DNA of 64,000 bases, taken from a virus. Every line of letters starts with the position of its first letter. Positions within the stretch are counted from its first letter, which is position 1. A program made the position numbers and the translations under genes. The notes under the pieces were generated by a model, which saw only the letters and a program-made list of their open reading frames with translations, did no database searches and had not been told where the DNA came from. Location of the stretch: positions 1 through 64,000 of the IMG/VR virus record IMGVR_UViG_3300044733_000695; one strand, written 5' to 3'. Positions 1 through 44,281 of the stretch are shown here, piece by piece.

Positions 1-108
1 CGTCGTCGGCGGGACTATCTCCGGCCCCTGCATCCGGCTTATGGGTGATGGTCAGCCTTCGTCGCTGACAGGACTAACTCCGGGCCATGCATCCGGCTTG
101 TGGCTGAA
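1..108. repeat. 108-bp exact direct repeat, copy 1
   Basis: cgtcgtcggcggg...tggctgaa is identical to 40568..40675; the copies diverge at 109/40676. Confidence 0.95.
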
Positions 109-1024: not shown

Positions 1025-2388
1025 TTGACTTTGCTCCATTGTCCTTTGGTTTGACGGGCGGCCAGAACATGCTTTGCCCATGCCACCGGGTTTTTGTAGC
1101 CTCTTTGCTGACCTAGCGCAATGAGTTGTTGCAGAGTTTGCGCGTTGCCTTGTTCGCGGCGTTGCTGGCGTTGCAACTCCTGCAGCTCACCCTCGACCAC
1201 CTTTAGCTCCCTGGCCTCCTGCGGGGCGAACACATGCCCGCAGTCAGGGCAGACCTGTGTGGCGCTCATGCTGGTAGCGAAGCACACCGGGCACACCTTG
1301 ACGCTGGGCGCTTGCTCGCGGTCGCGCTTTTTGGCACCATCCAGTGTCCAGTCGCGGTCCTCAAGGTGATGCCCTAGCCTGAGCGTGTTGCCCACATGGT
1401 CCAGCACCACAGCGGTCTTGCCGTGGCTTGGCCTCAGGCAGCGGCCGATCATTTGCAAATGCAGGCTGACGCTCTGCGTTGGCCTGAGCAGGATGCAGCC
1501 GCCGACGCTGGGCACGTCTACGCCCTCGCCAATCAAGCTGCAACTGGTCAGCACCTTGATGCGGCCAGTGCCCAATGCTGTTAACAGGTCTCTGCGCTGG
1601 TCGGTGGTCATGGTGCCATCAATGCTGGCGGCTGGGATGCCCTGGGACATGAATAGCGCCGCAACCGCTTCGGCATGCGCCACTGAGCAGCAGAAGGCGA
1701 TAGCTGTCTGCCCTGCCAGGTGCTTGCGGTAGTGGCTAACGCAGTCGCCCATGATGGTCCCGACGCGCTCCTCTGCTTGCTTGGCGTCAAAGTCGCCCAT
1801 CTTCTTGCGCAGCCCGGCAGTGTCAAACCCCGGCGGTGCCAGCACGCGAGCATTGGCTAGGTAGCCGTTATCGGTCAGCCACGCAGCGCTGGGGCCCTGC
1901 ACCATGGCCTCATAGTGGTCACCAAGCCCACGACCGTCACCACGGCATGGCGTCGCTGTCACTCCTAAAACGTGCGCTATTTGGAAATGGCGAATGACCG
2001 TCGCCCACTGGCCTGCATTGGTGTGGTGCGCCTCGTCCACCACCAAGAGCTGAAAGAACTCCCCCGGCAGCTTGTGCAGCCTCCGGGCAAGGGTCTGCAC
2101 ACTGGCCACCTGCACCGCATGGCTTAGGTCCATGTTGCGGCCTGCTGCGATGCGGCCATGCGTCACGCCCATAGCCGTAAGGCTGCGGCTGGCCTGGTCC
2201 AGCAGCTCTGCGCGGTGGACAAGTATGCAGACGCGGTTGCCTTTTTTGGCGGCGGACTGGGCGATATAGCTGAAGCACACCGTCTTGCCGCCGCCGGTTG
2301 GCAGCACTGCTAGCACTGTGCGCTTGCCGAGCTGGTACTGCAGGCGGATATCGGTGATGAGTTGTTGCTGGTAGGGGCGGAGGTTCAT
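1021..2388 (-). CDS. Superfamily 2 DEAD/DEAH helicase with C-terminal Zn finger
   Basis: LRPYQ, PTGGGKT, DEAHH, TATP, QMIGR motifs; CPVC..CPDC. Confidence 0.93.
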   Translation of the reverse strand: MNLRPYQQQLITDIRLQYQLGKRTVLAVLPTGGGKTVCFSYIAQSAAKKGNRVCILVHRAELLDQASRSLTAMGVTHGRIAAGRNMDLSHAVQVASVQTLARRLHKLPGEFFQLLVVDEAHHTNAGQWATVIRHFQIAHVLGVTATPCRGDGRGLGDHYEAMVQGPSAAWLTDNGYLANARVLAPPGFDTAGLRKKMGDFDAKQAEERVGTIMGDCVSHYRKHLAGQTAIAFCCSVAHAEAVAALFMSQGIPAASIDGTMTTDQRRDLLTALGTGRIKVLTSCSLIGEGVDVPSVGGCILLRPTQSVSLHLQMIGRCLRPSHGKTAVVLDHVGNTLRLGHHLEDRDWTLDGAKKRDREQAPSVKVCPVCFATSMSATQVCPDCGHVFAPQEARELKVVEGELQELQRQQRREQGNAQTLQQLIALGQQRGYKNPVAWAKHVLAARQTKGQWSKVK

Positions 2389-2894
2389 AATCCTCTAGCA
2401 AAAACTCCGTGCAACTGTTGAGATGCTTTGCAATAAGCGGCGTGAGCATCCTCTGCCGTATCAAAATATCCAAGATTCTTTTTTACGCCATTTGATTGTA
2501 TTTGCGCATTCCATTTGTTTTTCGATTTTTTCCAGCTTACGCCTTTGTAGCCGCTGCTGCTATTTTTTGGAGCGCCGCGATTGCAGGCATTTTCTGTATT
2601 ACTTGCCAACCGAAGATTAACAAATGAATTGTCACTTGGATTTGAATTAATGTGGTCAACATGAAAGTCGCCAGGGTCTTCTCCTGTCGCCAATAGCCAA
2701 GCCAGTCTTTGCGCTTGATATTTGCGGCCATTAATCCTGATGCGCTTGTATCCATTGGCATCAATACAACCAGCTTCGGCTCCTGCAGTTTTTCCTCCTG
2801 CAGCCTTTTTCCAAGAAAAAAATCCGGTTTCCTGATCGTACTGAATAAGTTCTGTAATCACCTCAAGAGGTGGTAATGGGACTGATTTGGTCAT
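2385..2894 (-). CDS. HNH homing endonuclease with AP2-like DNA-binding domain
   Basis: VDHINSNPSDNSFVNLR and SSGYKGVSW...LGYFDTAEDA; AT-rich. Confidence 0.88.
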   Translation of the reverse strand: MTKSVPLPPLEVITELIQYDQETGFFSWKKAAGGKTAGAEAGCIDANGYKRIRINGRKYQAQRLAWLLATGEDPGDFHVDHINSNPSDNSFVNLRLASNTENACNRGAPKNSSSGYKGVSWKKSKNKWNAQIQSNGVKKNLGYFDTAEDAHAAYCKASQQLHGVFARGL

Positions 2895-2962
2895 TGGCAC
2901 TGCTGGTGGCCTTGCAACCTTAGCAAAAAGCGCTAGGCTGCGCAAGCCCACCGCTAAAACCC

Positions 2963-5461: not shown

Positions 5462-5737
5462 ATGCGTGAAGTCAAAGTCCGTTTTGAAGAGCCTGACCTG
5501 TTGGCACTAGACCAGCAGGCCGCAGCGGCTGGGCTGTCCCGTGCGGAGTTGATCCGCAGCCGGGCGTTGGTGTCGAATTGCGACAGTGGCCTTACCGTTG
5601 CTGGTTATCACCGGCTAGTGTCCGATGCGCTTACCAATGTGCGCGGGGACATCCCACGCCGCATGGTTGAGCAGCTTGTCGCTTATGTCATCACATGGAT
5701 CTCGTCAACACCTCACCCAAGCAGCAACCAGTCCTGA
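5462..5737 (+). CDS. CopG/RHH-like DNA-binding protein
   Basis: VKVRFEEPDLLALDQQAAAAGLSRAELIR. Confidence 0.6.
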   Translation: MREVKVRFEEPDLLALDQQAAAAGLSRAELIRSRALVSNCDSGLTVAGYHRLVSDALTNVRGDIPRRMVEQLVAYVITWISSTPHPSSNQS

Positions 5738-17954: not shown

Positions 17955-18592
17955 TGGCAGCTGTCAACCTAAACACCGTTCGCGCCACCATTGAGGCACG
18001 ATTAACGGCTGAGCTGACCAGCCTCACGACGACATACACTCAAACCGGCACTGTCGTTACGATCAACGCCACTGCGCACGGTTACTACGTCGGCCAGTCG
18101 CTGACGTTGGACTACACATCTGGCGGCGGCGTTGACGGCACGTTCACTGTGGTCACCACAGCAACCAACTCTTTTACCGTGACTGCTGCCGGTGCGTTGA
18201 CAACCAGCGGAAATGTTACAGTGGTTAGCTCGCTGGGCAGCACCTTGCCGGTTGTCTTCCACAACCAGCCGTACATCCCAACGCCCGGTAGCTCATGGGT
18301 GCAGTGCCTGGTCAGCTTTGGCAACAACAACTACCTGACCATGGGCGGCACCACTGGCAGCAGCAACAGCGTCATTGGCGCCATCGTGGTCAATATCTTT
18401 ACCGCTAAGGGCGTTGGCCCTGGCGCTAACTACACAATTGGTAAACGCATCAGAGACCTTTACAATAGACAAGTAATCAGCGGCGTCCATTTTGACCCGC
18501 CCACTGGCCCAGAGGTGGTGGCTGCGCCAGCTCCTGAGGGTTACTTCCAAGCACAGGTCAGAATGACCTTTGAAACCTTCGAGGATCTCTAG
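17954..18592 (+). CDS. Tail terminator with an inserted Thr-rich beta domain
   Basis: VVFHNQP...VNIFTAKGVG; position before the tail tube genes. Confidence 0.7.
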   Translation: MAAVNLNTVRATIEARLTAELTSLTTTYTQTGTVVTINATAHGYYVGQSLTLDYTSGGGVDGTFTVVTTATNSFTVTAAGALTTSGNVTVVSSLGSTLPVVFHNQPYIPTPGSSWVQCLVSFGNNNYLTMGGTTGSSNSVIGAIVVNIFTAKGVGPGANYTIGKRIRDLYNRQVISGVHFDPPTGPEVVAAPAPEGYFQAQVRMTFETFEDL

Positions 18593-18594
18593 CC

Positions 18595-19011
18595 ATGGCT
18601 TTTTACCGAGGGCAGCAAGGCAGCGTCAAGTTTGACGACGGCGGCGCTACTGGCGTCACCATTGCCAGCACCCGCTCATGGTCTCTGACCGTTGAGAAGG
18701 AATCACTCGACACCACCGCGCTAGGCGCCACTTATCGCGCTAATGTCGGCGGCCTGATCAGCGGCAGCGGCACCGTCGAGGTGCTTTACACGGCCAGCAG
18801 CGCTGATGAGACGAACGCTTTTATCGAGCATGTCAACACGGCCACCGACGAAGGCGCAGCCCTGTTTGAGCTGTTCCTTGATACAAACGGCACTAAAAAG
18901 GTCAGCTTTGACGGTGTCATCACATCTGCCGAATATTCGGCTACCGTTGGCGAAATCGAAGTGATCACGGTCAACTTCGTTACCAACGGCGCCATTACCC
19001 TGGACATCTGA
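18595..19011 (+). CDS. Tail tube protein, copy 1
   Basis: RSWSLTVEKESLDTT...GLISGSGT...VNFVTNGA. Confidence 0.8.
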   Translation: MAFYRGQQGSVKFDDGGATGVTIASTRSWSLTVEKESLDTTALGATYRANVGGLISGSGTVEVLYTASSADETNAFIEHVNTATDEGAALFELFLDTNGTKKVSFDGVITSAEYSATVGEIEVITVNFVTNGAITLDI

Positions 19012-19013
19012 TC

Positions 19014-19433
19014 ATGGCTTTTTATCGCGGGCAACAGGGCACTGTCTTCTTTGATAAAGCTGGTGCAGGCGGCTTGTCTGAGATTGCTGCGGTCCGGTCT
19101 TGGACCATGACCGTCGAGAAGGAATCGCTTGACGTGACCGATCACGGCGACACCTACCGTGCCAACGTGGGTGGCTTGATCAGCGGTTCTGGCACCATTG
19201 AGCTGATGTATGACGCTCCAGGTTCTGGCGACAAGCTGGACCTGATCAAGGATGTCAATCAAGCCACCGATGAAGCTGATGCAGCGTTTGAGCTGTACCT
19301 CGATGAAACCGGCGGCAAAAAGATCACCGGCACGCTGGTGGTGACAGGTTCCGAGTATTCCGCTACTGTGGGCGAAATCGAGATTGTCTCGGTTAATTTC
19401 GTTACCTCCGGGGCACTGACCCTTAGCATCTAA
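19014..19433 (+). CDS. Tail tube protein, copy 2 (tandem paralog)
   Basis: Same MAFYRGQQG start and shared motifs with copy 1. Confidence 0.8.
   Translation: MAFYRGQQGTVFFDKAGAGGLSEIAAVRSWTMTVEKESLDVTDHGDTYRANVGGLISGSGTIELMYDAPGSGDKLDLIKDVNQATDEADAAFELYLDETGGKKITGTLVVTGSEYSATVGEIEIVSVNFVTSGALTLSI

Positions 19434-24652: not shown

Positions 24653-24656
<4 letters not shown>
24012..24656 (+). CDS. Tail assembly protein (lambda gpI-like, ubiquitin-like fold)
   Basis: VKVYGALRK, IAPVIAGAG, NTSQQGLPVPIAYG. Confidence 0.88.
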
Positions 24657-28468
<3,812 letters not shown>

Positions 28469-28496: not shown

Positions 28497-30212
28497 GTGG
28501 CTCAACACGATTACGTCATCGCGAACGGCACTGGTGCTGCTGTCCGCTCTGACCTGAACAACGCGCTGGCCGCGATCGTCAGCAACAACAGCGGCGCGAC
28601 AGAGCCAGCAACGATGTATGCCTACCAGTGGTGGGCTGATACCAGCACCGGGCTGCTCAAGCTACGCAATGCTGCCAACAACGCTTGGATCACACTGAGA
28701 GAACTGGATGGCACGCTAACCATTGAGGCAGGTACGGTCTCGGCCCCTGGCTTGGCGTTCGCGTCGGACCTGAATACGGGCATCTATAGCCCAAGCGCTG
28801 ATCAGCTTGCAATCGCAACCAACGGCGTCGAGCGCGTCGAATGGGGCACCAGCGAGGTGGTGTTCAACGATGGCGGCGCTAATTATGATTTCCGCATTGA
28901 AGGCGATACAAACTCTTCGCTTTTCTTTGTTGATGCGTCAGCAGAAGCGGTAGGGATTGGCACTGCTGCGCCTAGCTCCTTGGGAAGTAATGTAACAACG
29001 GTTGAAATCCAAGGACCTACAACTACAAGAAGTGGCGGGATTCGGCTGTCCTCTAGTGACAGTTCGCAGAAAAGCGCCTTTTATGTTTACGATGGCGCCG
29101 CAGTTCTTGGCACAGAAACTGCTCATCCTTTGGGTCTATACGTCAGCAACACTGAAAGATGCAGGGTCGATACATCAGGTCGTTTTTTAGTTAACACGTC
29201 TTCTAGCGTTCCGGTCCTTTCAACGGTCACCGGAGCAGCAGTACAGGTCAATTCAAGTGCATTCGGATCTTACGCGCAAACTTGGTTTTATGGCGCAAAT
29301 AACGAGTTTGCTCCAGTAATTATGCTGGCAAAAAGCAGAAATACCACCTACGGAAGTTATACAGTTGTCCAGAATAATGACCAGCTTGGAGGGCTTTGGT
29401 TTGCCGGTGATGACGGAACTGACTTAAACCAGTCCGGCGCAAAAATTGAAGCCTTTGTAGACGGCACGCCCGGCAATAACGACATGCCGGGCAGGCTGGT
29501 CTTCAGCACTACCGCCGCCGGAGCGAGCAGCCCGACGGAGCGGATGAGGATAAACTCGTTTGGATCTATTGGTTTTGGATGTACTCCAGATGGTTCGGCG
29601 AGTACACTTGGCGTTCAAACAGGCGGCAGTGCTGGATGGTTAATAACAAAAAGAAATAGCAATCCTGCGTTGTTTGTCAACAGAGGCGTGGATGATGGTG
29701 ACCTTGTATTGTTCTATCAAGCTGATGTTTCAGAAGGGTCTATCTCCGTCTCTGGCACCACCGTTAGCTACAACGGTGCTCACCTTTCCCGCTGGTCGCA
29801 GCTGCCTGGCGGCGCAACCCGCGAAGAAATCTTACGCGGCACCGTGCTGAGCAACATCGACGAGATGTGCGCCTGGGGCGAGGAAGAAAACGAACAGCTC
29901 AACCGCATGAAAGTCTCAGATGTGGAAGGCGACCCCAACGTGGCCGGCGTGTTCCAAGCCTGGGATGACGACGACGACACCTACACCGACGACTTCTATT
30001 GCGCGATGACGGGTGACTTCATCATCCGCATTGCCGATGGCGTCACGGTGCAACGCGGTGATCTACTCATGTCCGCTGGTGATGGAACGGCCAAGCCCCA
30101 AGATGATGACATCATCCGCAGCAAGACCGTCGCCAAGGTGACTTCAACTCACGTCACCTGCACTTATGACGATGGCAGCTACTGCGTGCCCTGCGTGCTG
30201 ATGGCTTGCTAA
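28497..30212 (+). CDS. Side tail fibre protein
   Basis: VRSDLNNALAAI N-terminus, ERMRI-type repeats, mosaic composition. Confidence 0.85.
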   Translation: MAQHDYVIANGTGAAVRSDLNNALAAIVSNNSGATEPATMYAYQWWADTSTGLLKLRNAANNAWITLRELDGTLTIEAGTVSAPGLAFASDLNTGIYSPSADQLAIATNGVERVEWGTSEVVFNDGGANYDFRIEGDTNSSLFFVDASAEAVGIGTAAPSSLGSNVTTVEIQGPTTTRSGGIRLSSSDSSQKSAFYVYDGAAVLGTETAHPLGLYVSNTERCRVDTSGRFLVNTSSSVPVLSTVTGAAVQVNSSAFGSYAQTWFYGANNEFAPVIMLAKSRNTTYGSYTVVQNNDQLGGLWFAGDDGTDLNQSGAKIEAFVDGTPGNNDMPGRLVFSTTAAGASSPTERMRINSFGSIGFGCTPDGSASTLGVQTGGSAGWLITKRNSNPALFVNRGVDDGDLVLFYQADVSEGSISVSGTTVSYNGAHLSRWSQLPGGATREEILRGTVLSNIDEMCAWGEEENEQLNRMKVSDVEGDPNVAGVFQAWDDDDDTYTDDFYCAMTGDFIIRIADGVTVQRGDLLMSAGDGTAKPQDDDIIRSKTVAKVTSTHVTCTYDDGSYCVPCVLMAC

Positions 30213-30314
30213 GCCTCGTAGTCCTACTCACTAACGCAGATAGCCAGCCCAGCTTTATAGTGGTGGGGCAGCGAGTTTGCGGCTCCTGCCCCTGGCCACA
30301 GTTCCCTAGAAACC

Positions 30315-30671
30315 ATGACCCAAGAAGACTACAGGTATCCCATTGCCCCGCCGCCGGAGCTGGTGCAGCAGTGGTACGACCAAGCCAAACAAGACCCATG
30401 TGGTCCAATTAACTGGGTTGCTGTCCGCGCCGCCCAATGGGGCGCCGACCAGGAGCTGGAGGTGTGCTGTGAGGCACTGGACAATTTGAATGATGGGTTC
30501 TGGAGTGAAAAACTCCGCGCCGCCCGCCGCCCCAAGCCGCAGAGCTTGAAGGAGCAGGCGTTACAAGCACTTTCTGAAGCCGTCAAAATGGCCGATGACG
30601 TCCCGCCAGAGGGGATTTGCTCAGGCCAAGCAGACATTATCCGCCACGCACTGGAGCAACTTGATGACTGA
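30315..30671 (+). CDS. Hypothetical accessory protein
   Basis: PPPELVQQW...QWGADQELE...RRPKPQSLKEQAL. Confidence 0.7.
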   Translation: MTQEDYRYPIAPPPELVQQWYDQAKQDPCGPINWVAVRAAQWGADQELEVCCEALDNLNDGFWSEKLRAARRPKPQSLKEQALQALSEAVKMADDVPPEGICSGQADIIRHALEQLDD

Positions 30672-30737
30672 TTACCAGTCCACGGTACTTTCTGCCGTCT
30701 TGATTATTTTCATCATTATCGTTGATTGGCACTTCAA

Positions 30738-31058
30738 ATGACTGACTTCCGAGAGCTGTGCGCCTGCATGGCTGACGAGCTTGATCATTACCGCCAGCTC
30801 CTAATGGATGATCGCCGCGAAACTCATGCGTTGGCGACCAAAGCCCGAGCCGCCCTAGCCCAGCCCGAGCCGGTGGCGCCTACGGATGAGGAGCTACTGG
30901 AGCTGATGCCTGAGACCATGCGGGATGAGTTTTCCTACGCGGCCAAGGTCTGCTCTGACGCAACCGGCGGCAAAGTCGAACCCGGCATCTTTCGCGTGGC
31001 GCTCAACACCGCTGCGCTGGAGTACGCCCAAGCTGTTTTGGCTCGTTACGCCCATTAG
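30738..31058 (+). CDS. Hypothetical accessory protein
   Basis: MTDFRELCA...PTDEELL; its stop is the TAG of motif copy 2. Confidence 0.7.
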   Translation: MTDFRELCACMADELDHYRQLLMDDRRETHALATKARAALAQPEPVAPTDEELLELMPETMRDEFSYAAKVCSDATGGKVEPGIFRVALNTAALEYAQAVLARYAH

Positions 31059-31095
31059 TCATTCCCACTAAAACCTTTTTGTTGATGTCACCAAA

Positions 31096-31389
31096 ATGGT
31101 CCGAATCATTCGACAATGGTTATCGAACCGCCGTGCTAGGCGTGTCCTGAATCAGCCCGCCCCGTGGGAACGGCAGCTCATCCCAAACATGGGTATGAGA
31201 TACCGGCATGACTACGGGCTGCTGAATGAAGACGAACGCGCTGCCGTGGATCAGCAGATGCTTCAGCTTGCAGAGGAGGTGGTGACGTGGTTCCGTCGTG
31301 AGGCTGATAACCACCATCTCAGCGTTGGCGGCGCGATCCTGCGGTTCAAGGCATCCAACATCCTTGAAGACCACATCAAAGCCTCGTAG
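31096..31389 (+). CDS. Hypothetical accessory protein
   Basis: 97-aa ORF; its stop is the TAG of motif copy 3. Confidence 0.6.
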   Translation: MVRIIRQWLSNRRARRVLNQPAPWERQLIPNMGMRYRHDYGLLNEDERAAVDQQMLQLAEEVVTWFRREADNHHLSVGGAILRFKASNILEDHIKAS

Positions 31390-31438
31390 TCACCTTCACT
31401 AGACACCCGTCTTAGACTCCCACCAACCACACAGCATC

Positions 31439-31768
31439 ATGAGCATCACCTACAACTGGGCCATCGCCAACCTAGAACGCGAGGTTTCGGACGGTTACGT
31501 CTTTACCGCGCACTGGACGGTGGTGGGCATCTCTGATGACGTTGACCCCGAAGGCAATCCCTACAACTCCGGTGCCTATGGCTCCATGGGTCTGGAGCGT
31601 CCTGAGGGCAGCATGATCCCGTTCAGCCAGCTCACCCAAGAGCTTTGCGTTCAGTGGGTCAAGGACAAGTTTGGCCCGGATAAGGTCACCGAGATCGAGG
31701 AAGCGCTCGCTGCACGGATCGTAGACCAGCAGTTTCCGACCGTTGAAGCTGGCGTCCCGTGGCAGTAA
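31439..31768 (+). CDS. Conserved tail-fibre-associated protein
   Basis: YNWAIANLER..DGYVFTAHW...IPFSQLT...GVPW. Confidence 0.7.
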   Translation: MSITYNWAIANLEREVSDGYVFTAHWTVVGISDDVDPEGNPYNSGAYGSMGLERPEGSMIPFSQLTQELCVQWVKDKFGPDKVTEIEEALAARIVDQQFPTVEAGVPWQ

Positions 31769-32486: not shown

Positions 32487-33545
32487 ATGGTCAAACTGAG
32501 CGACCTGTTCCGGTACTACAAGCACGGCACGCCGCATCAGATGGCGGCCATCTCTGAATTGGAAGCAGAGCTGTTAAAGGTTGCGCCTGCAATCTTGAAT
32601 AGGGACCAAGCCTGGTACAAAACCTGGCAGCAAGGCGGCAAGCTGCATAATTATGGGCCAGCGATAAAGCTGATAAAAGAGTTTGAGGGCTGCCACCTAA
32701 GCGCTTACCCTGATCCGCTTAGCGGCGGCGACCCGTGGACCATCGGCTATGGCACCACCAGGTACAGCGATGGCCGCAAGGTGCAACGCGGCGACAAGAT
32801 TACAGTTATTGAAGCCAGCAGCCTGCTTGAACTTGAGATAGACCGCATTGCCGCCAAGCTGCGTGCGACGGTGCCGTTTTGGAATGCCATGAGCGGCAAC
32901 CAGCAATGTGCGCTGATTAGCTTTGCCTACAACCTGGGCAGCGGGTTCTACGGATCCGAAGGATTCGAGACGATCAGCAAGCGCCTGAAAGAGAAGGACT
33001 GGGCAGGGGTGCCAGCAGCGATGCTGTTGTATCGCAACCCCGGCACCAGCGTCGAGGCTGGTTTGCTACGTCGCCGGCAGGCAGAAGGCAGACTGTGGGT
33101 TGGCGATCAGCAGCAGGGAGCAGCCAAACTGACGCCTAGCAGTCCGTTCAGCGCACGGATCACGCCGCACATCCGAATCGGTGAGTTTGCGCTAGACCAA
33201 GAGGCACGGCGCTTTGATCACCAGTACCAAGTAGATACCGCAGCTGAGCTGGCAGCATTCCTAGAACGCGCTCGTGGTGCATTTGGCAACAAGCCGCTCA
33301 TCATCACGTCGGGTTACAGACCAGCAATCATCAATCGGCAGGTAGGTGGTGCCAGCGGCAGCGAGCACCTATTTAATGCGCCTGGCGTGGGTGCAGTTGA
33401 CTGGTATATCAACGGCGTGGACATCTACAAGCTGCAGGACTGGTGCGTCAAGCATTGGCCATACAGCACTGGACTAGGCGCACCCAAGGGCTTTATCCAT
33501 ACCGGCATCCGTCAAGGCAGGCCGCGTCTCACTTGGCCTTATTAG
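32487..33545 (+). CDS. Endolysin: GH24 lysozyme plus C-terminal M15-type peptidase
   Basis: IKEFEG..AYPD..WTIGYGTT, GLLRRRQAE; ITSGYR..N..VGGASGSEH, FIH. Confidence 0.9.
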   Translation: MVKLSDLFRYYKHGTPHQMAAISELEAELLKVAPAILNRDQAWYKTWQQGGKLHNYGPAIKLIKEFEGCHLSAYPDPLSGGDPWTIGYGTTRYSDGRKVQRGDKITVIEASSLLELEIDRIAAKLRATVPFWNAMSGNQQCALISFAYNLGSGFYGSEGFETISKRLKEKDWAGVPAAMLLYRNPGTSVEAGLLRRRQAEGRLWVGDQQQGAAKLTPSSPFSARITPHIRIGEFALDQEARRFDHQYQVDTAAELAAFLERARGAFGNKPLIITSGYRPAIINRQVGGASGSEHLFNAPGVGAVDWYINGVDIYKLQDWCVKHWPYSTGLGAPKGFIHTGIRQGRPRLTWPY

Positions 33546-34425: not shown

Positions 34426-34604
34426 GACAGTACGTCCTTGAGATTGAGTACACCATTGTGGTGGAATCTGAAGACGACGACCCAGAAGAGGTATCGGACA
34501 ATTTCGTGGCGCGGCTCACTGAGCTAGCGCCGTCCAACGATCACGTCCTGGGCCTCACGGTTCAGGTGTTACCCATCCCGGAACTGCGTGGATCATTTGA
34601 TTGA
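34422..34604 (+). CDS. Small acidic hypothetical protein
   Basis: Homologous to 40754..40939. Confidence 0.65.
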   Translation: MRQYVLEIEYTIVVESEDDDPEEVSDNFVARLTELAPSNDHVLGLTVQVLPIPELRGSFD

Positions 34605-34887
34605 TGGCTCCAACCTCGTATCAAAACGCAGCGCAAAGCATCAATTTAGACAGCAAATTTTTGAAGCATGGGGCCATACATGCGCGTATTGCGGCGCCCC
34701 GGCTGACACGCTAGACCATGTGAAGCCACGTCATAAAGGTGGCGCTACTGTTGCTTGCAATCTTGTACCGGCGTGCAAGAATTGCAACCGTAAGAAAGGC
34801 AGCGAGGAATGGCGCGAATGGTTTAGCCGTCAAGATTCGTGGTCTGTTGATCGCGTTCTAAAGATTCAGGATTGGTTGGTTGATTGA
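34588..34887 (+). CDS. HNH endonuclease
   Basis: CAYCG..TLDHVKP..KGG...NLVPACKNCN..K. Confidence 0.9.
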   Translation: MDHLIDGSNLVSKRSAKHQFRQQIFEAWGHTCAYCGAPADTLDHVKPRHKGGATVACNLVPACKNCNRKKGSEEWREWFSRQDSWSVDRVLKIQDWLVD

Positions 34888-34999
34888 GCATCTGATGGTA
34901 AAAAATCAGTGCTTGCCACTGCTGCCTGTGCTCTCGGCACATACCGTTGAAGCAAACCCTCCATACATCCTGATAGCGGCTGATTGTTGGTTTCGACAT
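34823..34999 (-). CDS. Hypothetical protein
   Basis: CFNGMCR..WQA motif shared with 41311..41484. Confidence 0.55.
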   Translation of the reverse strand: MSKPTISRYQDVWRVCFNGMCREHRQQWQALIFYHQMLNQPTNPESLERDQQTTNLDG

Positions 35000-35879
35000 G
35001 GCCAAGCGGGGTATTGCTTAATGGGTTGCTCATCAGCATACGAAGGCGGCTAATGCCACGACGCTCTAGGTTTTGCAGCTTGGTGCGGCTGACGCCTGTT
35101 TGTTGTTCAAGTTGCGCCCAGGTGACAGGCCGCGCAAGGTTTCTGGCATGGATTACCTGTTTGGTCAACGGGTCTAAGTATTTGTTAAAACAATCCATCA
35201 ATTCGCGTATCTCTTGCCGGGTTTCTATCAGGTCATTGTCGTAGTTAGGGTCAGCAATGTTGTCACCGATGCATGTGGTCTCGGTGTCAGCAACACGCTG
35301 GTCTAGGCTTGTCACTTTATAGGTTTGCTTTAACAAGTATGACAGTTCTTCTACATCCATATCCAGTGCGTTAGATATTTCGCTCATGGTTGGCTGTCTG
35401 CCGATCTTATGGCTTAGATCCTGCATGGTGCGGTTTATCTTGTACAGCATCTCATGCAAACTGGTTGGCAGGCGAATTATGGAGTCATGCTGGATCAATG
35501 CCCGCGTAATGCCTTGCCTGATCCACCAATAGGCATAAGTTGAAAACTTGTAACCGCGTGACGGGTCGAATAGCTCAACCGCACGCGCAAGGCCGATATT
35601 GCCCTCTTGGATCAAGTCCATCAACTCAAGCGTCTTATTGCTGCGCTTGTCGTACTTGCGGGCTACATGGACTACAAGCTGCAGGTTGGACTTAATAAAC
35701 CGTTGCCTAGCGCGTTCACCGCTTCGCAACTCGCGTTGCTCATCACGGGTTAGCTCCCTGTCGCATTGTCTTAATTCTTGCCATCTAATGACACGCCTGC
35801 CGAGTTGTATCTCTTGTTGCGGTGTCAGTAGTGGATATTTGGCGATACTGTTGAGGTAGTCTTTGATGCTGTCGGCCAT
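34866..35879 (-). CDS. RpoD/SigA-family RNA polymerase sigma factor
   Basis: YPLLTPQQEIQL, NLQLVVHVARKY, DLIQEGNIGL, GYKFSTYAYWWIRQGITRA. Confidence 0.95.
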   Translation of the reverse strand: MADSIKDYLNSIAKYPLLTPQQEIQLGRRVIRWQELRQCDRELTRDEQRELRSGERARQRFIKSNLQLVVHVARKYDKRSNKTLELMDLIQEGNIGLARAVELFDPSRGYKFSTYAYWWIRQGITRALIQHDSIIRLPTSLHEMLYKINRTMQDLSHKIGRQPTMSEISNALDMDVEELSYLLKQTYKVTSLDQRVADTETTCIGDNIADPNYDNDLIETRQEIRELMDCFNKYLDPLTKQVIHARNLARPVTWAQLEQQTGVSRTKLQNLERRGISRLRMLMSNPLSNTPLGHVETNNQPLSGCMEGLLQRYVPRAQAAVASTDFLPSDAQSTNQS

Positions 35880-36123
35880 GATGAATCCATTAGTTCACAC
35901 AATGGAAGCACAGTTCCACGGCGCTGCCAACGCTAACATGTTGCGCCAGCTACATGCAGCAAAAGATTGGAATGCGTTACTTGAGTACAGCTTGCTACTG
36001 GCTGAGCAGGAGGCTAGCCAGCGCTCGCAGATTAAGTGGCTAGCTGCCGAGGCGATGCGCTCATGCAGCATCGAGCCTTGGCATTTGGCTGCGGCCGAGG
36101 AACTGCTTGGAGGCAGCCACTAG
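35878..36123 (+). CDS. Hypothetical protein divergent from the sigma gene
   Basis: ORF filling the gap between sigma and dcd. Confidence 0.5.
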   Translation: MMNPLVHTMEAQFHGAANANMLRQLHAAKDWNALLEYSLLLAEQEASQRSQIKWLAAEAMRSCSIEPWHLAAAEELLGGSH

Positions 36124-36615
36124 CTTGTCATTGTTGTAGTGCCCAACCTGCGCATAGCTCAGCGCTGGCTGCTGGCTCATGCGGAAAAACACCATCTGAC
36201 CAATCTTGAGCCCTGGGTAAATGGGCAGCGGCTGCAGCTGACGGGCGTTTTTCAGCTCTAGCGTTAGCGTGCTGCCATTCCAGCCGGGATCGGCATAGCC
36301 GGCGTGGAGGTTCTCATAGCCCTCCCTAGCGCGGCTTGACTTCAGGAAGAACAGGCCGGCGATATCTTCCGGCATGTAAAAGGTCTCCACCGTCTGGGCC
36401 AGCACAAACTGACCAGGCACCAACTCGTATGGATGCTCCACGGTGTAACCGCTGATGTCAAGCGGAATCATCTGGTGCCCTTGGACCGATTCGAGCATGA
36501 TCAGGTTGCCAAGCCGCAGGTCCAAGCTGGCAGGATTGATCAGCTCTGGGTCATGGCCCTGCACCATCCCCTGAGTGACGATCAGGTCTTCGATTTCGGT
36601 GTCAGATAGGATCAT
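36061..36615 (-). CDS. dcd: dCTP deaminase
   Basis: INPASLDLRLG, KSSRAREG, AGYADPGW.G..TLEL, IGQMVF. Confidence 0.92.
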   Translation of the reverse strand: MILSDTEIEDLIVTQGMVQGHDPELINPASLDLRLGNLIMLESVQGHQMIPLDISGYTVEHPYELVPGQFVLAQTVETFYMPEDIAGLFFLKSSRAREGYENLHAGYADPGWNGSTLTLELKNARQLQPLPIYPGLKIGQMVFFRMSQQPALSYAQVGHYNNDKLVAASKQFLGRSQMPRLDAA

Positions 36616-36835
36616 TGATGTCGATAACGTGTTTACCAGTGCAGTGCTTAGATGCTGACCATTTCAGGTCATACTTTGAAATTTGAATTTCTGCCGGTTG
36701 CTTGGTGTACCAGCGGTGATTACACCCATCGCAGCGGCGACGCCTAACAATCGTACCGTCAGCCAATTGATTGGTCATAACGACATACGTCTGCTGGCAT
36801 GAGCAGCTAGGGCATCGGACTTGAACTGCTGGCAC
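36602..36835 (-). CDS. Zn-ribbon protein (NrdR N-terminal-like)
   Basis: CPSC...VRRRRCDGCNHRWYT. Confidence 0.7.
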   Translation of the reverse strand: MPAVQVRCPSCSCQQTYVVMTNQLADGTIVRRRRCDGCNHRWYTKQPAEIQISKYDLKWSASKHCTGKHVIDINDPI

Positions 36836-37097
36836 GTCTAACTCGGCTCATAGCATCGGACCTGAATTGCTTGCATGTATCTTCTAAATCTTGGGCAAGG
36901 ACGGCAGCCGAACGCAGCAGCGTTGTAAGCGTCACCGGCTTCATGTCACGATCCGTCGCATAGCGAATGGCGTGCCTGAAGCCTTGACTGATGTTGCCGC
37001 CGCCGAGTTTGCGGGCAGCTTCAATCTCCTCGCGGCTCATGCGAATGTTCACCGTGTAGTTGCGACCGCGCTGCGTTGGTATGCGCGGGCTAGGCAT
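36807..37097 (-). CDS. RHH-like hypothetical protein
   Basis: Near-identical homolog at 42951..43232. Confidence 0.7.
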   Translation of the reverse strand: MPSPRIPTQRGRNYTVNIRMSREEIEAARKLGGGNISQGFRHAIRYATDRDMKPVTLTTLLRSAAVLAQDLEDTCKQFRSDAMSRVRRASSSSPMP

Positions 37098-37332
37098 TGC
37101 CCTCTAGCTCGGCAGCGATGGCGAGAAAATGAGCGCGAATGGCGTGATGTGCGGCGAACACGCCTGCATCAGCGTCGGTGTCACCTAATGGCGTGTTCAT
37201 CTGCACCTGATCCGCAGCAGCTCGCAGAGCGGCGGCAATCGCGGGCAGGTAATGCCAGTCATCCGGCTTGCCGCTGGCGGCGCGGTTGAACTCCCAGAAC
37301 ACTTGTTGCGCGGCAGGGGAGAGGTTAGTCAT
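37090..37332 (-). CDS. Hypothetical protein
   Basis: MTNLSPAAQ...IAAALRAAADQV...LAIAAELE. Confidence 0.6.
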   Translation of the reverse strand: MTNLSPAAQQVFWEFNRAASGKPDDWHYLPAIAAALRAAADQVQMNTPLGDTDADAGVFAAHHAIRAHFLAIAAELEGNA

Positions 37333-37960: not shown

Positions 37961-38163
37961 GGGTTGATTGGTGTAATGGAATGGGTCTCTTCAAAGGCCA
38001 GTACATCAGGCAGGTTGTACCTGACGCGGGACTGGCCGAGTGGACATCCTAGCCTCGGGACTGTGTAATAGCTAGGTCCTTGGCCGCGTAATCGTTGAGA
38101 CTTAATGCTGGACGGCTTGAGGCCCCAACGCTCGGCTAGTTGCTCAGTTGTCAGATAACTCAT
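37957..38163 (-). CDS. Excisionase-like HTH protein
   Basis: [11 protein letters not shown]...GQGPSY...VRY...VLAFE. Confidence 0.75.
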
Positions 38164-38890
38164 TCTCTTTTTCAAGCATTAGTTGCAAAAGTTGATCGTG
38201 CTGCTCTTGGCTGATCTCACCGGCTTCTAGCCGTGCCGCCATACGCGGTTGCAGGTCTTCTAGATCCTGCAGGGTTTTGGCCTTAGCGATGGCCGCCTTA
38301 CCAGCGGTGAACGTCTTGCTGCTGTCTACCTTGGTGGTAGCAGGCAGCTTGACCTGCTCAGCTGGCGTGACCGTAACAGTCTCGGCTTGGTCCATTTCGT
38401 CGGTGCTGTACACACCAGACATGTCGGCAGGGAATGCCTTACGAAGCGCCAGCGCCTCAGAGCATTTGGCAATCATGGCGGCTGGCATTTTGGACCACAG
38501 CCCTTGGCCGGCGTTGTAGTCAGCAAAGCGGGCAACACCAATAAAAGGGTGTTGGCTGCCTTTGCGATGCACGATGGTCTTAGCTGCAGCGGGCGGCTTG
38601 CTGGAGAGCCATACGTCGCGCCATTCGCCTTCATCACCACACCAGTACGTCTCGCTGCCGTCTAGTTGTCCGGTGCGTTCGGCAATGGCACGCAAACCGT
38701 CAATGCCGGCCTGAATGGTCATCTTGCCGCCACGCTTGATGGCGTAAATCTGCTTGCTGAATGGGTCAAGGCCAGTGCGCTGGCACGCATAGGCGAACAG
38801 CCGCAGCTCATCATTGCTGCAGCCTGGCGCAATGGTGCTGCTAATAAGCTGCGTTTGCTCTGGGGTCCAAAGGGTGATAGCGGTTGACAT
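38144..38890 (-). CDS. bet: ssDNA annealing recombinase (Bet/RecT family)
   Basis: [38 protein letters not shown]. Confidence 0.9.
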
Positions 38891-39684
38891 CAGAACTCGA
38901 TGGGTGATTGCTGGTTGGCATTAAGTGCCCAGCCGGGCAGGCTGAGCGTTTGGACTGAGGTGTCGCCGTAGCCGGGCCACATGTCAGCGGCCTTGCAGGT
39001 GGCGATCACGTCCAGTGCATTATCGCGCATGGTCCGCCCTAGTGCCATAGCGGCATGGTCCAGTTCGTAAACGGCGACCGCATACGGCGCAGTCTTTTCC
39101 ACTGCGATAAACACAAACCGGCCAGCACCGTGCAAACCAGCGAGGTAATGCGCTGCCTGGACGTGGTAGGCGAAGGTCGCCACGCTACGCGCAAACGCTG
39201 CAGGGCTGGCGTCTTGGCATGTCTTCAGGTCAACGATGGTGCTGCCTTGATACCAGTCTGGGCGGCATTTGCAGCGCAGTCCTGTTGGCAGGTCATCCCA
39301 CCAGAACGACTGCTCAGCCTTGCCATGAGCGAGCAGCGCTGATGCAGCAGGATGCCGTCGGACGCTATCGGCCATGCAGTTAGCGGTCAGCATGTCGCCG
39401 GCCGTTACGGCTTCGATGCCAGCAGTAGCCATCTGCTCAGCCTGTTCCTTGCCTGCTTTGGTGTTGCGTGGCCCGCAGACGCCATAGCGGGATGACAGCT
39501 CATCAGGCTCCAGCACGGCGCAATGCACCAAGCTGCCTAGCTTCATCGCTGCTGTCGGTTCAACCGGCAAGCGATGCGGGTCCAGATATCGCGCCCAATA
39601 GTGGTAAGGCGATTGCATTACCGCTTTGAGGTGACTGGCGCTGACGGCTGGGTCGGCGTGATAGTCGGCACTAGAGATGGTCAT
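38890..39684 (-). CDS. PD-(D/E)xK exonuclease (RecE/ExoVIII-like)
   Basis: YHA..AVSAS, GSLVH..LEP, KCRPD, VDLKT, YHVQAA.Y. Confidence 0.9.
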
Positions 39685-40524: not shown

Positions 40525-40675
40525 GGATGAGGTCAGGTAACGCCCGACCCCCGAGGCGGCCGACCTGCGTCGTCGGCGGGACTATCTCCGGCCCCTGCAT
40601 CCGGCTTATGGGTGATGGTCAGCCTTCGTCGCTGACAGGACTAACTCCGGGCCATGCATCCGGCTTGTGGCTGAA
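40525..40675 (-). ncRNA. Candidate structured non-coding RNA (~150 nt) with two tandem units
   Basis: Promoter upstream, no credible ORF, ~59-nt tandem units with compensatory hairpins UCAGC-GACGAAG-GCUGA / CCGAC-GACGCAG-GUCGG. Confidence 0.55.
40568..40675. repeat. 108-bp exact direct repeat, copy 2; junction between phages A and B
   Basis: Identical to 1..108. Confidence 0.95.
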
Positions 40676-42437: not shown

Positions 42438-42954
42438 TGAACTGCCTCGAGGCGGTGGCAAGCTGGTCGTTGTTGTAGTGGCCAGTGACGGCATAGCTAA
42501 CTGCTGGCCGCTGACTCATGCGGAAGAACACCATCTGGCCAATCTTCAGACCGGGCCAGATCGGCAGCGATTGCAGCTGGCGCGCGTTCTTCAGCTCAAG
42601 CGTGAGCGTGCTGTCATGCCAGCCAGGATCGGCATATCCAGCGTGCAGGTTCTCATAGCCCTCCCTGGCGCGGCTCGACTTCAGAAAGAACAGGCCGGCC
42701 ACATCTTCGGGCATGTTGAAGGTCTCGACCGTTTGGGCCAGTACAAACTGACCAGGCACCAACTGATAAGGATGCTCTGGCGTGTACCGGCTGATCTCGA
42801 GCGGGATCATCTGGTGGTTCTGGACCGATTCAAGCATGATCAGGTTGCCAAGCCGCAGGTCCAAGCTGGCTGGATTGATCAGGTCTGGGTCATGGCCCTG
42901 CACCATCCCTTGAGTGGCGATCAGGTCTTCGATTTCGGTGTCGGAGAGAATCAT
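42430..42954 (-). CDS. dcd: dCTP deaminase
   Basis: Highly similar to 36061..36615. Confidence 0.92.
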   Translation of the reverse strand: MILSDTEIEDLIATQGMVQGHDPDLINPASLDLRLGNLIMLESVQNHQMIPLEISRYTPEHPYQLVPGQFVLAQTVETFNMPEDVAGLFFLKSSRAREGYENLHAGYADPGWHDSTLTLELKNARQLQSLPIWPGLKIGQMVFFRMSQRPAVSYAVTGHYNNDQLATASRQFNV

Positions 42955-43232
42955 GGTTTGGTGGTAGCGCGTCTGACGCGGCTCATGGCGTCAGACTTGA
43001 ACTGTTGACAGGCATCTTCAAGGTCCTGCGCCAGCACAGCGGCTGAGCGGAGCATGGTGGCCAGCTTCACCGGCTTAAGGTCGCGCTCGGTCGCGTAACG
43101 GATCGCCTGCCGAAAACCTTGGCTGATGTTGCCGCCGCCAAGTTTGCGGGCAGCTTCGATCTCCTCGCGGCTCATGCGGATGTTGACCGTGAAGTTGCGA
43201 CCGCGCTGCGTTGGTATGCGCGGGCTAGGCAT
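42951..43232 (-). CDS. RHH-like hypothetical protein
   Basis: MPSPRIPTQRGRNFTVNIRMSREEIEAARKLG. Confidence 0.7.
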   Translation of the reverse strand: MPSPRIPTQRGRNFTVNIRMSREEIEAARKLGGGNISQGFRQAIRYATERDLKPVKLATMLRSAAVLAQDLEDACQQFKSDAMSRVRRATTKP

Positions 43233-44281
43233 TGCCCCACTTGCCAAGCAAGAACTGCCGGCACACATGGATGCACTGCTGCGCGTGTTTGTCAGCCAGA
43301 TGGCTCTCGGTTTCGCCAATCGCCAGCACACACGCGGCATGGAGTTCGGCGTAATCGGTGTCGCGGAAGTTGGCGCCCAGGTCCATGCTGAACTCCTCCC
43401 ACAGGCCGGTATAGGTGCAGCAGGTGCGGCCACTGGCTTGGTAAAGCGCCTCGAGCATGTCGGCGCGTTGCTGATCGAGTTGAACCCGGTTCATTGGTGT
43501 GGGTGCATGGCTTGGCGGATCGTAAGCAGTTCTTCCCGGCGTGCCGAGATGTGCGGGTGACTGGGCAGCCCAGCCAGCTGGTCGAGCCGTGCATCGATCA
43601 AGGCGCACAGCCGCAGCCGTTCTTCGACCTGGCCGGCGTTGAACATGCCCGAATCGCTGATGAGCGCTTCAAGTTTGGCGCGAATGTGGTCGGTCATCGC
43701 AGGCTCGGGTTCCGCTCTGCAGCGGTCAGTGATGGGTGGTCATCGTCATCGTCTTCCCAGTCGGGCTGAAGCAGCACGCTCAGCACCTGCTGGCCTGGGT
43801 ACAGCTCCATCGCGCTCAGCGCAGCGGTGGCCGCGTTCGGTGCCAGCAGCTCAACCTGATCGATCGCGAGGGTGACGCGGTAGCAGTTCATGCCACCTCC
43901 ACCTCAGAGCCGGGCCAGCGAGCCTGCGCGTATTTGATCGCGTGCCGTTTCGTCTCGGCGCGGGTGATCCATGTCATCGGCTGAGAGCCGGGCTTGAACA
44001 CCAGCAGCCTGAACTCGCGTGTCCGGGCCTTGGGCTTCGGGCGGCTGATGCCGTCGCCGTAGCGGCCCTGCTGCTGGTCATCCCACTGAAGGCAGACGTT
44101 ATCCATCGATGGTGCGGGCGATGTGTTGCGGGTCGATCCATTCCATCTCGTCCCAGAACGGCAACCAGTCAGTGGCTGCTTTGGCCTTGGCATCCGTCAG
44201 GCTGTACGCCCAGATGCATTCGATCACGTTGGCGTCGCGGATAGTGAAGTAAAAGCGGCGCAGCTCAGGGGCGTCAGTCAT
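43225..44281 (-). other. Run of five small coupled early ORFs (43225..43494, 43491..43697, 43694..43891, 43888..44106, 44099..44281)
   Basis: Overlapping start/stop codons on the minus strand. Confidence 0.6.

Follow-up and report, generated by a model that had tools for sequence, protein, structure and literature searches.

Promoter-early stem-loops (PeSLs) are known from T4-type phages (Arbiol et al. 2010, PMC2839356; Comeau et al. 2014, PMC4122927), and the portions of these papers drawn upon here describe them as short conserved repeats that border small non-essential genes in hyperplastic regions and share the orientation of those genes. According to the same portions, indels and replacements between relatives are bounded by the repeats, and the exchange is ascribed to homologous recombination between them. 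The locus considered here, which may be of a related kind, lies in a stretch of 64,000 nucleotides (nt), referred to below as the window, that corresponds to positions 1 to 64,000 of the IMG/VR virus record IMGVR_UViG_3300044733_000695 (73,028 base pairs (bp) in full). In the window, a tail-fibre gene and a gene for a DUF7936 protein, the left and right anchors of the slot discussed throughout, are separated by small cargo genes, and three exact copies of a 15-bp motif, TAGTC-N5-CACTA, all on the plus strand, mark gene boundaries between the two anchors. Comparison with relatives showed this motif to be a linker at gene boundaries that is reused letter for letter between unrelated neighbours, falls into a few discrete classes and bounds units of variable content.

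The slot comprises the following features, in which the class of a site refers to its centre; open reading frames are abbreviated as ORFs, amino acids as aa, and loci of relatives are cited by L numbers.

28497-30212, plus strand: tail-fibre gene, 571 aa, the left anchor; PHROG matches phrog_18345 (1.4e-41) and phrog_9942.
30219-30233, plus strand: junction site 1, class A, six bases past the fibre stop TAA at 30210-30212.
30256-30314, plus strand: stem-loop and leader, of the kind found before cargo genes starting MTQEDY; folding gives a stem at about 30260-30299.
30315-30671, plus strand: cargo 1, 118 aa, phrog_32006 (1.3e-26), from a very large family of small genes.
30664-30741, plus strand: ORF of 25 codons for a hydrophobic peptide; its start overlaps the cargo 1 stop and its stop overlaps the cargo 2 start.
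30738-31058, plus strand: cargo 2, 106 aa, with one relative among the loci (L033) and no Pfam or PHROG match.
31056-31070, plus strand: junction site 2, class B, whose TAG is the stop codon of cargo 2 (the ORF ending at 31058).
31096-31389, plus strand: cargo 3, an orphan of 97 aa with no relative among the loci and no family match above cut-off.
31387-31401, plus strand: junction site 3, class C, whose TAG is the stop codon of cargo 3 (the ORF ending at 31389).
31413-31418, plus strand: -10-like hexamer of the TAnnnT type, 11 nt past site 3, a spacing kept in several relatives.
31439-31768, plus strand: the right anchor, a DUF7936 protein of 109 aa; Pfam PF25590 (1.3e-27) and phrog_7802.

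Three exact matches to the motif compare with a mean of 0.06 in 100 dinucleotide shuffles, of which 0 held three or more, and the full record contains three forward and zero reverse matches. The claim of the sequence-only reading, three exact sites placed at gene boundaries, was thus borne out by direct reading, by the ORF table and by this count. When up to two mismatches were allowed, 30 matches were found where 24.2 were expected, and 15 of the 100 shuffles reached 30; a count this near to expectation indicates that there is no genome-wide degenerate family. The direct repeat that had been reported around the outer sites was recovered as a 13-mer starting at 30211 and 31379. The motif is not common genome-wide, its three copies in the record all lying within 1.2 kilobases (kb), and relatives are equally restricted.

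A degenerate copy at 30676 had been proposed as a further member, and it was discarded: its score on a weight matrix derived from the relatives is under 11 bits, and it lies inside the conserved 25-codon ORF at 30664-30741, where a terminator-like hairpin (30682-30698) is also found. The junction between cargo 1 and cargo 2 is thereby left without the motif. The 25-codon ORF is kept as a peptide of 23-25 aa in L146, L151-L153 and L179, and it is probably a real small membrane-protein gene.

The gene at 31439 served as the anchor with which 47 IMG/VR loci were collected, and their plus-strand ORFs were called and clustered. Architectures were counted in the 33 loci in which both fibre and anchor were called, and junctions were counted after 7 duplicate loci had been dropped, with a motif threshold of 12 bits. 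Among the 33 loci the slot took 14 architectures: it was empty, the fibre leading directly to the anchor, in 14 of them and held one to four cargo genes in the others, while six cargo genes were found in L034/L037, where anchor calling failed, which gives an overall range of 0-6. The motif stood at 43 of the 63 junctions from fibre to anchor, and the 20 motif-free ones included 8 integrase-to-anchor junctions, several stop/start overlaps and 2 degenerate copies. In 27 of 48 hits the motif opened on the stop codon, its first T being that codon's first base, and the gap from motif to next start codon ranged from 0 to 273 nt, being 0-40 nt in most short junctions. Single-site empty alleles, whose existence had been predicted, were found in L018, L023, L024 and L030, where the fibre stop is followed by one site of the 30219 class, about 22 nt and the anchor ATG, and also in L032; both there and in L026, a fibre-type site is joined to the leader that the window has between site 3 and the anchor. 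The proposal of a gene exchange hotspot delimited by the sites therefore stands, on the checks of gene content, which varies in the relatives, of junctions, at which the cargo varies in motif-bounded units, of empty alleles and of motif rarity.

The anatomy of the motif was read from 210 unique 70-nt contexts scoring at least 14 bits in all fetched loci. Information was confined to the 15 positions of the motif and to 2-3 positions of the preceding codons, and positions 6-15 were nearly free of G (29 G in 1940 bases). The near-inverted, invariant arms that had been described held in part: positions 1-4 and 12-15 are conserved in a roughly symmetric way, and the last 2-3 bases of the right arm vary among relatives with the right-hand neighbour. 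Six centre classes accounted for 187 of the 210 contexts, distributed as follows.

Class C, that of the site at 31387: 63 contexts.
Class A, that of the site at 30219: 44 contexts.
Class B, that of the site at 31056: 33 contexts.
Three further centre classes: 21, 17 and 9 contexts.

The flanks of the exact 15-mer of 31387, found in 14 contexts, formed 9 clusters on the left and 8 on the right, and those of the 31056 15-mer, found in 10 contexts, formed 8 and 7. When the flanks were viewed as gene families, class A always followed the fibre and its right partner varied, class C always preceded the anchor or the integrase and its left partner varied, and both partners of class B varied. Such reuse of exact, discrete classes between unrelated neighbours argues that the copies are related by descent and were spread by recombination, rather than having arisen by convergence.

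It was also asked of the whole loci where the motif occurs. At a weight-matrix score of at least 12 bits, 374,046 nt from 44 loci gave 113 plus-strand and 4 minus-strand hits, and 102 of the 113 lay within 2 kb upstream of the anchor gene, although 14 of these 102 are chance matches made by a 15-mer in the coding sequence of the fibre gene. This conserved fibre 15-mer, which matches TAGT-N7-ACTA by accident, was seen in L001, L002, L004, L009, L010, L012-L014 and L021, and likewise in L026, L027, L030, L032, L044, S-LBS1, S-CBP3, S-CBP4 and WH11-B; a second coding false positive was filtered from the segment, anatomy and class counts. In five near-complete relatives, copies with a pyrimidine centre were confined to the slot with one exception, in genome G004 (C1:31926; L145 at about 2427-2441, minus strand), where a gene of the cargo-1 family has the copy at its stop and the next ATG comes 7 nt later; this minus-strand region lies some 7 kb off, and the copy has the orientation of the genes around it. 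Another copy outside the fibre-anchor slot was observed in S-RIP1 (HQ317388, 19304, minus strand). The motif was absent from the leaders of 35 other plus-strand genes and 8 minus-strand genes, on which grounds a general translation signal was rejected. That it is restricted to the slot and to a few arrays of small genes speaks against a signal of expression in general.

The motif also occupies this slot in isolated marine phages. In S-CBP4, a T7-like podovirus, 25 nt identical to 30209-30233 of the window follow an unrelated fibre C-terminus (E = 2e-4, the only isolate matched), and in S-CBP3 a small gene lies between a strong (18.1 bits) and a weak (12.9 bits) copy, followed by a terminator and then the anchor. 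Both podoviruses have the pyrimidine-centre motif once per genome, in the slot only. Variants of the motif were found in S-RIP1, KBS-S-2A, WH11-B, S-H1 and S-LBS1. An intrinsic terminator follows the motif within about 15 nt in S-RIP1 and at about 95 nt in S-CBP4, and past the cargo gene in S-CBP3. No published description of the motif was found in the literature, supplementary files lying outside that search; in the S-LBS1 paper the word 'repeat' occurs 0 times, a count that leaves aside its supplementary tables, which perhaps hold predicted promoters.

Homology between the window and its relatives ends on the fibre side at 30229-30235 or at 30210, and begins on the anchor side at 31377-31388, or at 31436 in integrase-bearing alleles. 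When breakpoints were counted all against all among 30 unique intervals, the pairs of which are not independent, 127 of 648 homology ends lay at +5 to +20 of a motif start, compared with 39 of 1928 random positions, and 139 of 931 homology starts lay at -20 to +10, compared with 86 of 1928. The stem-loop and leader at 30256-30314, which is 93-98% identical to its counterparts in L007, L008, L033 and L034, is a second recurrent breakpoint island.

The pool of motif-bounded segments had 92 unique members, which between them contained at least 32 protein clusters; this set is uncurated, and a few segments carry fibre pieces or larger stretches. Its largest cluster was the cargo-1 family (phrog_32006), of which IMG/VR holds at least 587 relatives. 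Arrays of this family (L146-L225) have a second conserved junction type, in which the next ATG lies within the last codons of a gene, five bases ahead of its stop (75 of 116 gene ends), and tandem paralogues, up to four, occur in L176 and L191, for example. The motif goes with one C-terminal flavour of the cargo-1-family protein, inside and outside the slot. That it always travels with cargo 1 is ruled out by S-RIP1 and S-CBS2, in which family members lie in replication modules without the motif.

Another cargo is a tyrosine integrase (Pfam PF00589, Phage_integrase, 8.5e-14), which is the last gene before the anchor in L001-L004, L006, L007, L009, L011, L013, L014, L017 and L019-L022. The isolate S-LBS1 has it in the same position (fibre A11, integrase A12, anchor A13), and this integrase is the subject of the S-LBS1 paper (PMC6157547), as far as the part of that paper used here goes. 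A search of IMG/VR gave 116 integrase relatives, of which 80 were kept (L065-L143) on contigs of 4 to 91 kb; the integrases of the kept loci are 70-100% identical in aa sequence. An anchor-like start (MxTTFTW, DUF7936) comes directly after the integrase in most of the loci listed, a majority that is uncounted. Distant copies of the integrase have an obvious TTGACA-N17 promoter and close relatives do not. Among the 47 integrase loci with at least 1.5 kb of upstream sequence, 39 have the motif within 1.5 kb upstream. The integrases of the relatives matched XerD/XerC models only, with E values no better than 1e-4, and reached E<=0.001 with none of the integron-integrase models. When 185,579 species genomes were searched with the integrase, only short phage-like contigs of metagenome-assembled genomes (L053-L055), apparently mis-binned, were returned, with no host junction, prophage or bacterial attachment site (attB).

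A complete transfer RNA (tRNA) gene, tRNA-Arg (ACG), was found at 3897-3970 of L075, between a class A and a class C site on the way from fibre to integrase, which indicates that the site is independent of translation of the preceding gene. ARAGORN found no tRNA in 7 integrase/slot loci and, in 10 further loci, only this tRNA-Arg. No tRNA fragment was called at the sites. An origin of the sites as a tRNA-derived phage attachment site (attP) is disfavoured by these results and by the misfit of the motif with the tRNA 3' end in a comparison by eye.

The surroundings of the slot bear on how it may be exchanged. An exact 108-nt direct repeat joins window positions 1-108 to 40568-40675, which delimits a unit of about 40.57 kb, phage A, followed by part of a related phage; two pairs of stretches in the window are 81-82% identical (36100-36399 with 42439-42738 and 36827-37102 with 42962-43237). 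The repeat and the related second part may reflect a terminal repeat plus a chimeric or concatenated assembly. Phage A is, on sequence grounds, a siphovirus of the S-LBS1/S-CBS type, Synechococcus phage-like, and Synechococcus phages made up 23 of the 27 records matching the region around the array. Outside the slot, its relevant features are the following.

2385-2951, minus strand: HNH endonuclease gene.
24653-28468: J-like central fibre gene, upstream of the tail fibre in gene order.
Between the anchor gene at 31439-31768 and the endolysin: gene of 82 aa.
32487-33545: endolysin gene.
34588-34887, plus strand: HNH endonuclease gene.
34866-35879, minus strand: cyanobacterial RpoD-type sigma factor.
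38144-38890, minus strand: single-strand annealing protein of the Bet/RecT family (Pfam RecT 1.5e-32; NCBIfam bet_lambda 99.2 bits against a cut-off of 76.95).
38890-39684, minus strand: PD-(D/E)XK exonuclease, partner of the annealing protein (Pfam DUF3799/PDDEXK_1; C-terminal part of exodeoxyribonuclease VIII, 9.1e-37).

Neither a tyrosine recombinase (PF00589) nor a serine recombinase was found in the 73-kb record. No phage-type RNA polymerase (PF00940) was found there either, and the same search was positive for S-CBP4 and S-CBP3. The Bet/RecT protein is a candidate for the trans-acting recombination function of the slot. Double-strand breaks made by HNH/AP2-type enzymes could also drive exchange. 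One of the two HNH genes carries an AP2 DNA-binding domain, and in L225 an HNH/AP2-like gene is itself a motif-bounded cargo. The anchor protein was modelled with AlphaFold2 (predicted local distance difference test score, pLDDT, 83.7) as a three-strand sheet with two helices, and the model gave no PDB fold match at E<=0.001; since it holds no pointer to DNA binding, the anchor was set aside as a factor that would bind the sites. Elsewhere in the tail region, runs of a 9-nt glycine-codon repeat occur at 24661-24709 and 25120-25159, near the N-terminus of the J-like central fibre protein, and two neighbouring tail genes, each of about 138 aa (18595-19011 and 19014-19433), have DNA starts that are 74% identical (18583-18635 and 19002-19054), probably a tandem duplication.

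These results altogether are consistent with sites that act as a short, portable, strand-specific junction linker at which general recombination shuffles cassettes in a PeSL-like manner in the hyperplastic slot of picocyanobacterial phages, a reading to which we give about an even chance of being correct. The linker would be a patch of portable homology, and general recombination between co-infecting relatives, or between copies, would add, delete or swap cassettes at it, the recombination being supplied by the Bet/RecT protein and exonuclease of the phage or by the host. The build of the linker, which starts with TAG, mostly closes with a TAA or TAG in a second frame and is free of G, would provide no start codon, since none can be formed without G, and little structure; any pair of genes joined through it would stay terminated, with re-initiation presumably taking place at the following ATG, 0 to about 40 nt downstream. 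That breakpoints fall at islands of more than one kind, in a phage with a Bet/RecT-exonuclease pair, points to exchange that is driven by homology rather than site-specific. The earlier suggestion of an integron- or shufflon-like, site-directed capture was accordingly not upheld, given that no tyrosine or serine recombinase was found, that the 15-nt sites show no significant fold and are all direct repeats, and that many breakpoints fall elsewhere. The sequence-only reading had also stated that phage A has no evident recombinase, which is right for tyrosine and serine recombinases and wrong in that an annealing protein and an exonuclease are encoded; its fallback, exchange by annealing, fits these two proteins.

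Several observations weigh against the linker reading. About four fifths of the pairwise breakpoints lie away from the motif, and other islands take part: the hairpin and leader at 30256-30332, together with the opening codons that several cargo families share, a pair of conserved stretches within cargo 1, and the ATG of the anchor gene (31436). Moreover, 15 identical bases are short for annealing-type recombination. The majority of gene ends in the cargo-1 family are motif-free, 75 of 116 being stop/start overlaps, 20 having a motif-like start at the stop and 21 being of other kinds. In L009, L067 and L080, fibre-type and integrase-type sites abut with no cargo between them and have remained unfused. 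The roughly symmetric conservation of positions 1-4 and 12-15 resembles that of a dyad protein-binding site. The motif is kept past the fibre stop even where the anchor protein is only 50-60% identical, and its retention in such deeply diverged single-site alleles suggests an additional selected function. The data from four lake metagenomes, finally, are assembled unitig-like contigs, so that they show variants and branch points (at 30233, 30256, 30332, 30473, 30511, 30560 and 31436), not recombination events: one lake contig joins 30662 to 31048, skipping cargo 2, and one back-joint leads from 31101 to 30256 with 19 other letters between, with which a circle, a duplication or a different gene order are all compatible.

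The retention of the motif in deeply diverged single-site alleles counts in favour of a different explanation, in which the motif is a cis-acting expression signal only (an operator bound by a dimeric protein, akin to the alternative named in the sequence-only reading, a stoperator-like block, a translational operator or re-initiation element in the mRNA, or part of a promoter for the sigma factor of the phage) that each gene of the slot would require before or behind it, and cassette turnover is unrelated to it. Strict co-orientation with genes (113 plus-strand hits against 4 on the minus strand), the tight placement against the upstream stop with 0-40 nt to the next ATG in most short junctions, and the G-free positions 6-15 (29 of 1940) would all be expected of such a signal. 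The phage also encodes an RpoD-type sigma factor, and a weak ribbon-helix-helix match, below the Pfam cut-off, lies at 5462-5737. Before the anchor, in several relatives as in the window, the motif lies 11 nt upstream of the -10-like hexamer; the copy of this hexamer at 31413-31418 was read from the upstream regions, the consensus scan did not pick it up, and it is possibly the anchor gene's own promoter. However, that scan found no sigma-70 promoter-like or terminator-like match at the three sites, a 4-5 bp RNA stem there was no better than in shuffles (fold z-scores of -0.1 to -1.0), and no Rfam family was found at the sites beyond one chance-level match. A general signal would be expected elsewhere in the genome, where it is absent, and other late-gene leaders are unlike the motif. 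The distance to the next ATG varies from 0 to more than 200 nt, and in L008 the ATG comes directly after the motif, which leaves no room for a promoter. The motif also follows a tRNA gene, and it occurs in phages that differ in their transcription, the window encoding a sigma factor and S-CBP3 and S-CBP4 a T7-type RNA polymerase. Constraint alone, besides, should give a graded centre, not six exact and reused classes. A purely cis-acting role is therefore regarded as unlikely, though with a real claim on attention. A narrower proposal, that the motif is a promoter of a T7-type single-subunit RNA polymerase or a relic derived from podoviruses, draws on its occurrence in T7-like cyanopodoviruses and on the agreement of site 1, by eye, with 12 of 15 positions of what we take to be the upstream part of the T7 class III promoter consensus. 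It is hardly credible: the record has no phage-type RNA polymerase, which the same search detects in S-CBP4 and S-CBP3, these two genomes hold one copy each, in the slot only, a terminator follows within about 15 nt in S-RIP1, and the copies in the window do not agree in the centre, where the specificity would reside.

It is also conceivable that the sites are targets of a site-specific recombinase, either the tyrosine integrase that many relatives have in the slot, working in cis or supplied in trans by a co-infecting relative, or an enzyme of the host. On this view, the enzyme would be bound by the arms, with the 5-7 nt centre as its overlap region, and the centre classes would be heterospecific sites that permit cassette exchange. 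The integrase does lie between fibre and anchor in many relatives and in S-LBS1, lambdoid phages keep attP in a like slot (end of the tail genes, site, int), and the motif is found upstream in 39 of the 47 integrase loci described above. The dyad-like symmetric conservation with its fixed 5-nt spacing and the six discrete centre classes (187 of 210 contexts) also agree with such an enzyme, as does the fact that the integrase and the tRNA gene are themselves bounded by sites, the integrase standing next to a class C site. On the other side, the record of the window has no tyrosine or serine recombinase and yet three perfect sites, and the integrase-less L005, L008, L010, L012 and L034 carry sites with up to six cargo genes. 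Integrases that are about 85% identical lack the motif within 70 nt upstream in L082-L085, L087 and L090-L094, 8 of the 47 integrase loci lack it within 1.5 kb, and it stands at 0 of 8 integrase-to-anchor junctions. Breakpoints fall at other islands too, the search of species genomes revealed no prophage or attB, the motif occupies the same slot in the podoviruses S-CBP4 and S-CBP3, and arms of 4-5 bp are very short for the core of a tyrosine recombinase. This explanation is therefore considered improbable. So is its widest form, a natural multi-site cassette-exchange platform that would span unrelated cyanophage families, S-LBS1/S-CBS-like siphoviruses as well as T7-like podoviruses, and in which the six classes would be heterospecific sites read by an integrase that is itself a cassette; were it true, accessory genes, tRNA genes, fibre 3' modules and the integrase would be traded in a directed, register-preserving way, as a phage counterpart of integrons with 15-nt sites.

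If the linker reading is true, the old 'linker' idea of modular phage evolution would become concrete and testable in cyanophages, for which genetic tools exist, as the part of PMC8776855 used here indicates. The movement of accessory genes and fibre 3' modules between unrelated phages that share a host guild would be explained by a 15-nt junction that freshwater siphoviruses have in common with marine podoviruses, and the pool of accessory genes in metagenomes could be searched out and catalogued with it as a simple marker. The slot comes immediately after the gene of the host-recognition fibre, and some members carry the integrase of lysogeny there; its genes are probably used against the defences of hosts or rivals.

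Among described systems, integrons resemble the locus in their small, co-oriented and mostly promoterless cargo genes, each followed by a site, in the variable number and identity of these genes and in the existence of empty alleles. They differ in that the record has no IntI, that the integrase of the relatives is a cargo, co-oriented and site-bounded, whereas IntI stands divergently beside its array with attI and Pc, and that the sites are of 15 nt, in contrast to attC hairpins, which are imperfect inverted repeats of about 57-141 nt folded from a single strand. The stoperators of cluster A mycobacteriophages are likewise short sites oriented with transcription in tiny intergenic spaces, often overlapping stop codons; however, they number 20-30 genome-wide and are bound by a repressor, whereas here three copies lie in 1.2 kb and mark variable content. 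Shufflons (Rci, sfx) share the placement of short repeats beside a gene for a host-recognition protein, but their repeats are inverted and a dedicated recombinase inverts C-terminal segments, while the repeats at this locus are all direct, lie outside the fibre ORF and come without an Rci-type gene. The linkers of modular theory and the lambda b region offer an accessory slot at the end of the tail genes by the integrase and short border sequences as proposed crossovers; to our knowledge, it is rare for linkers of this sort to be described as a motif that is exact, recurrent and divisible into classes, as is the case here (210 contexts, six classes) and across virus families. The closest known counterpart would be the PeSLs, which, according to the portions of the PeSL papers used here, consist of a sigma-70 promoter and a terminator stem-loop, have shown regulatory activity and are accompanied by detected mini-circles. 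By analogy, the cyanophage motif, which likewise borders small co-oriented genes and bounds the differences in content between relatives, would be an element of this PeSL-like kind that differs in its length of 15 nt, in having no promoter or terminator match and no significant fold, in its overlap with the stop codon and in its spread over siphoviruses and podoviruses alike.

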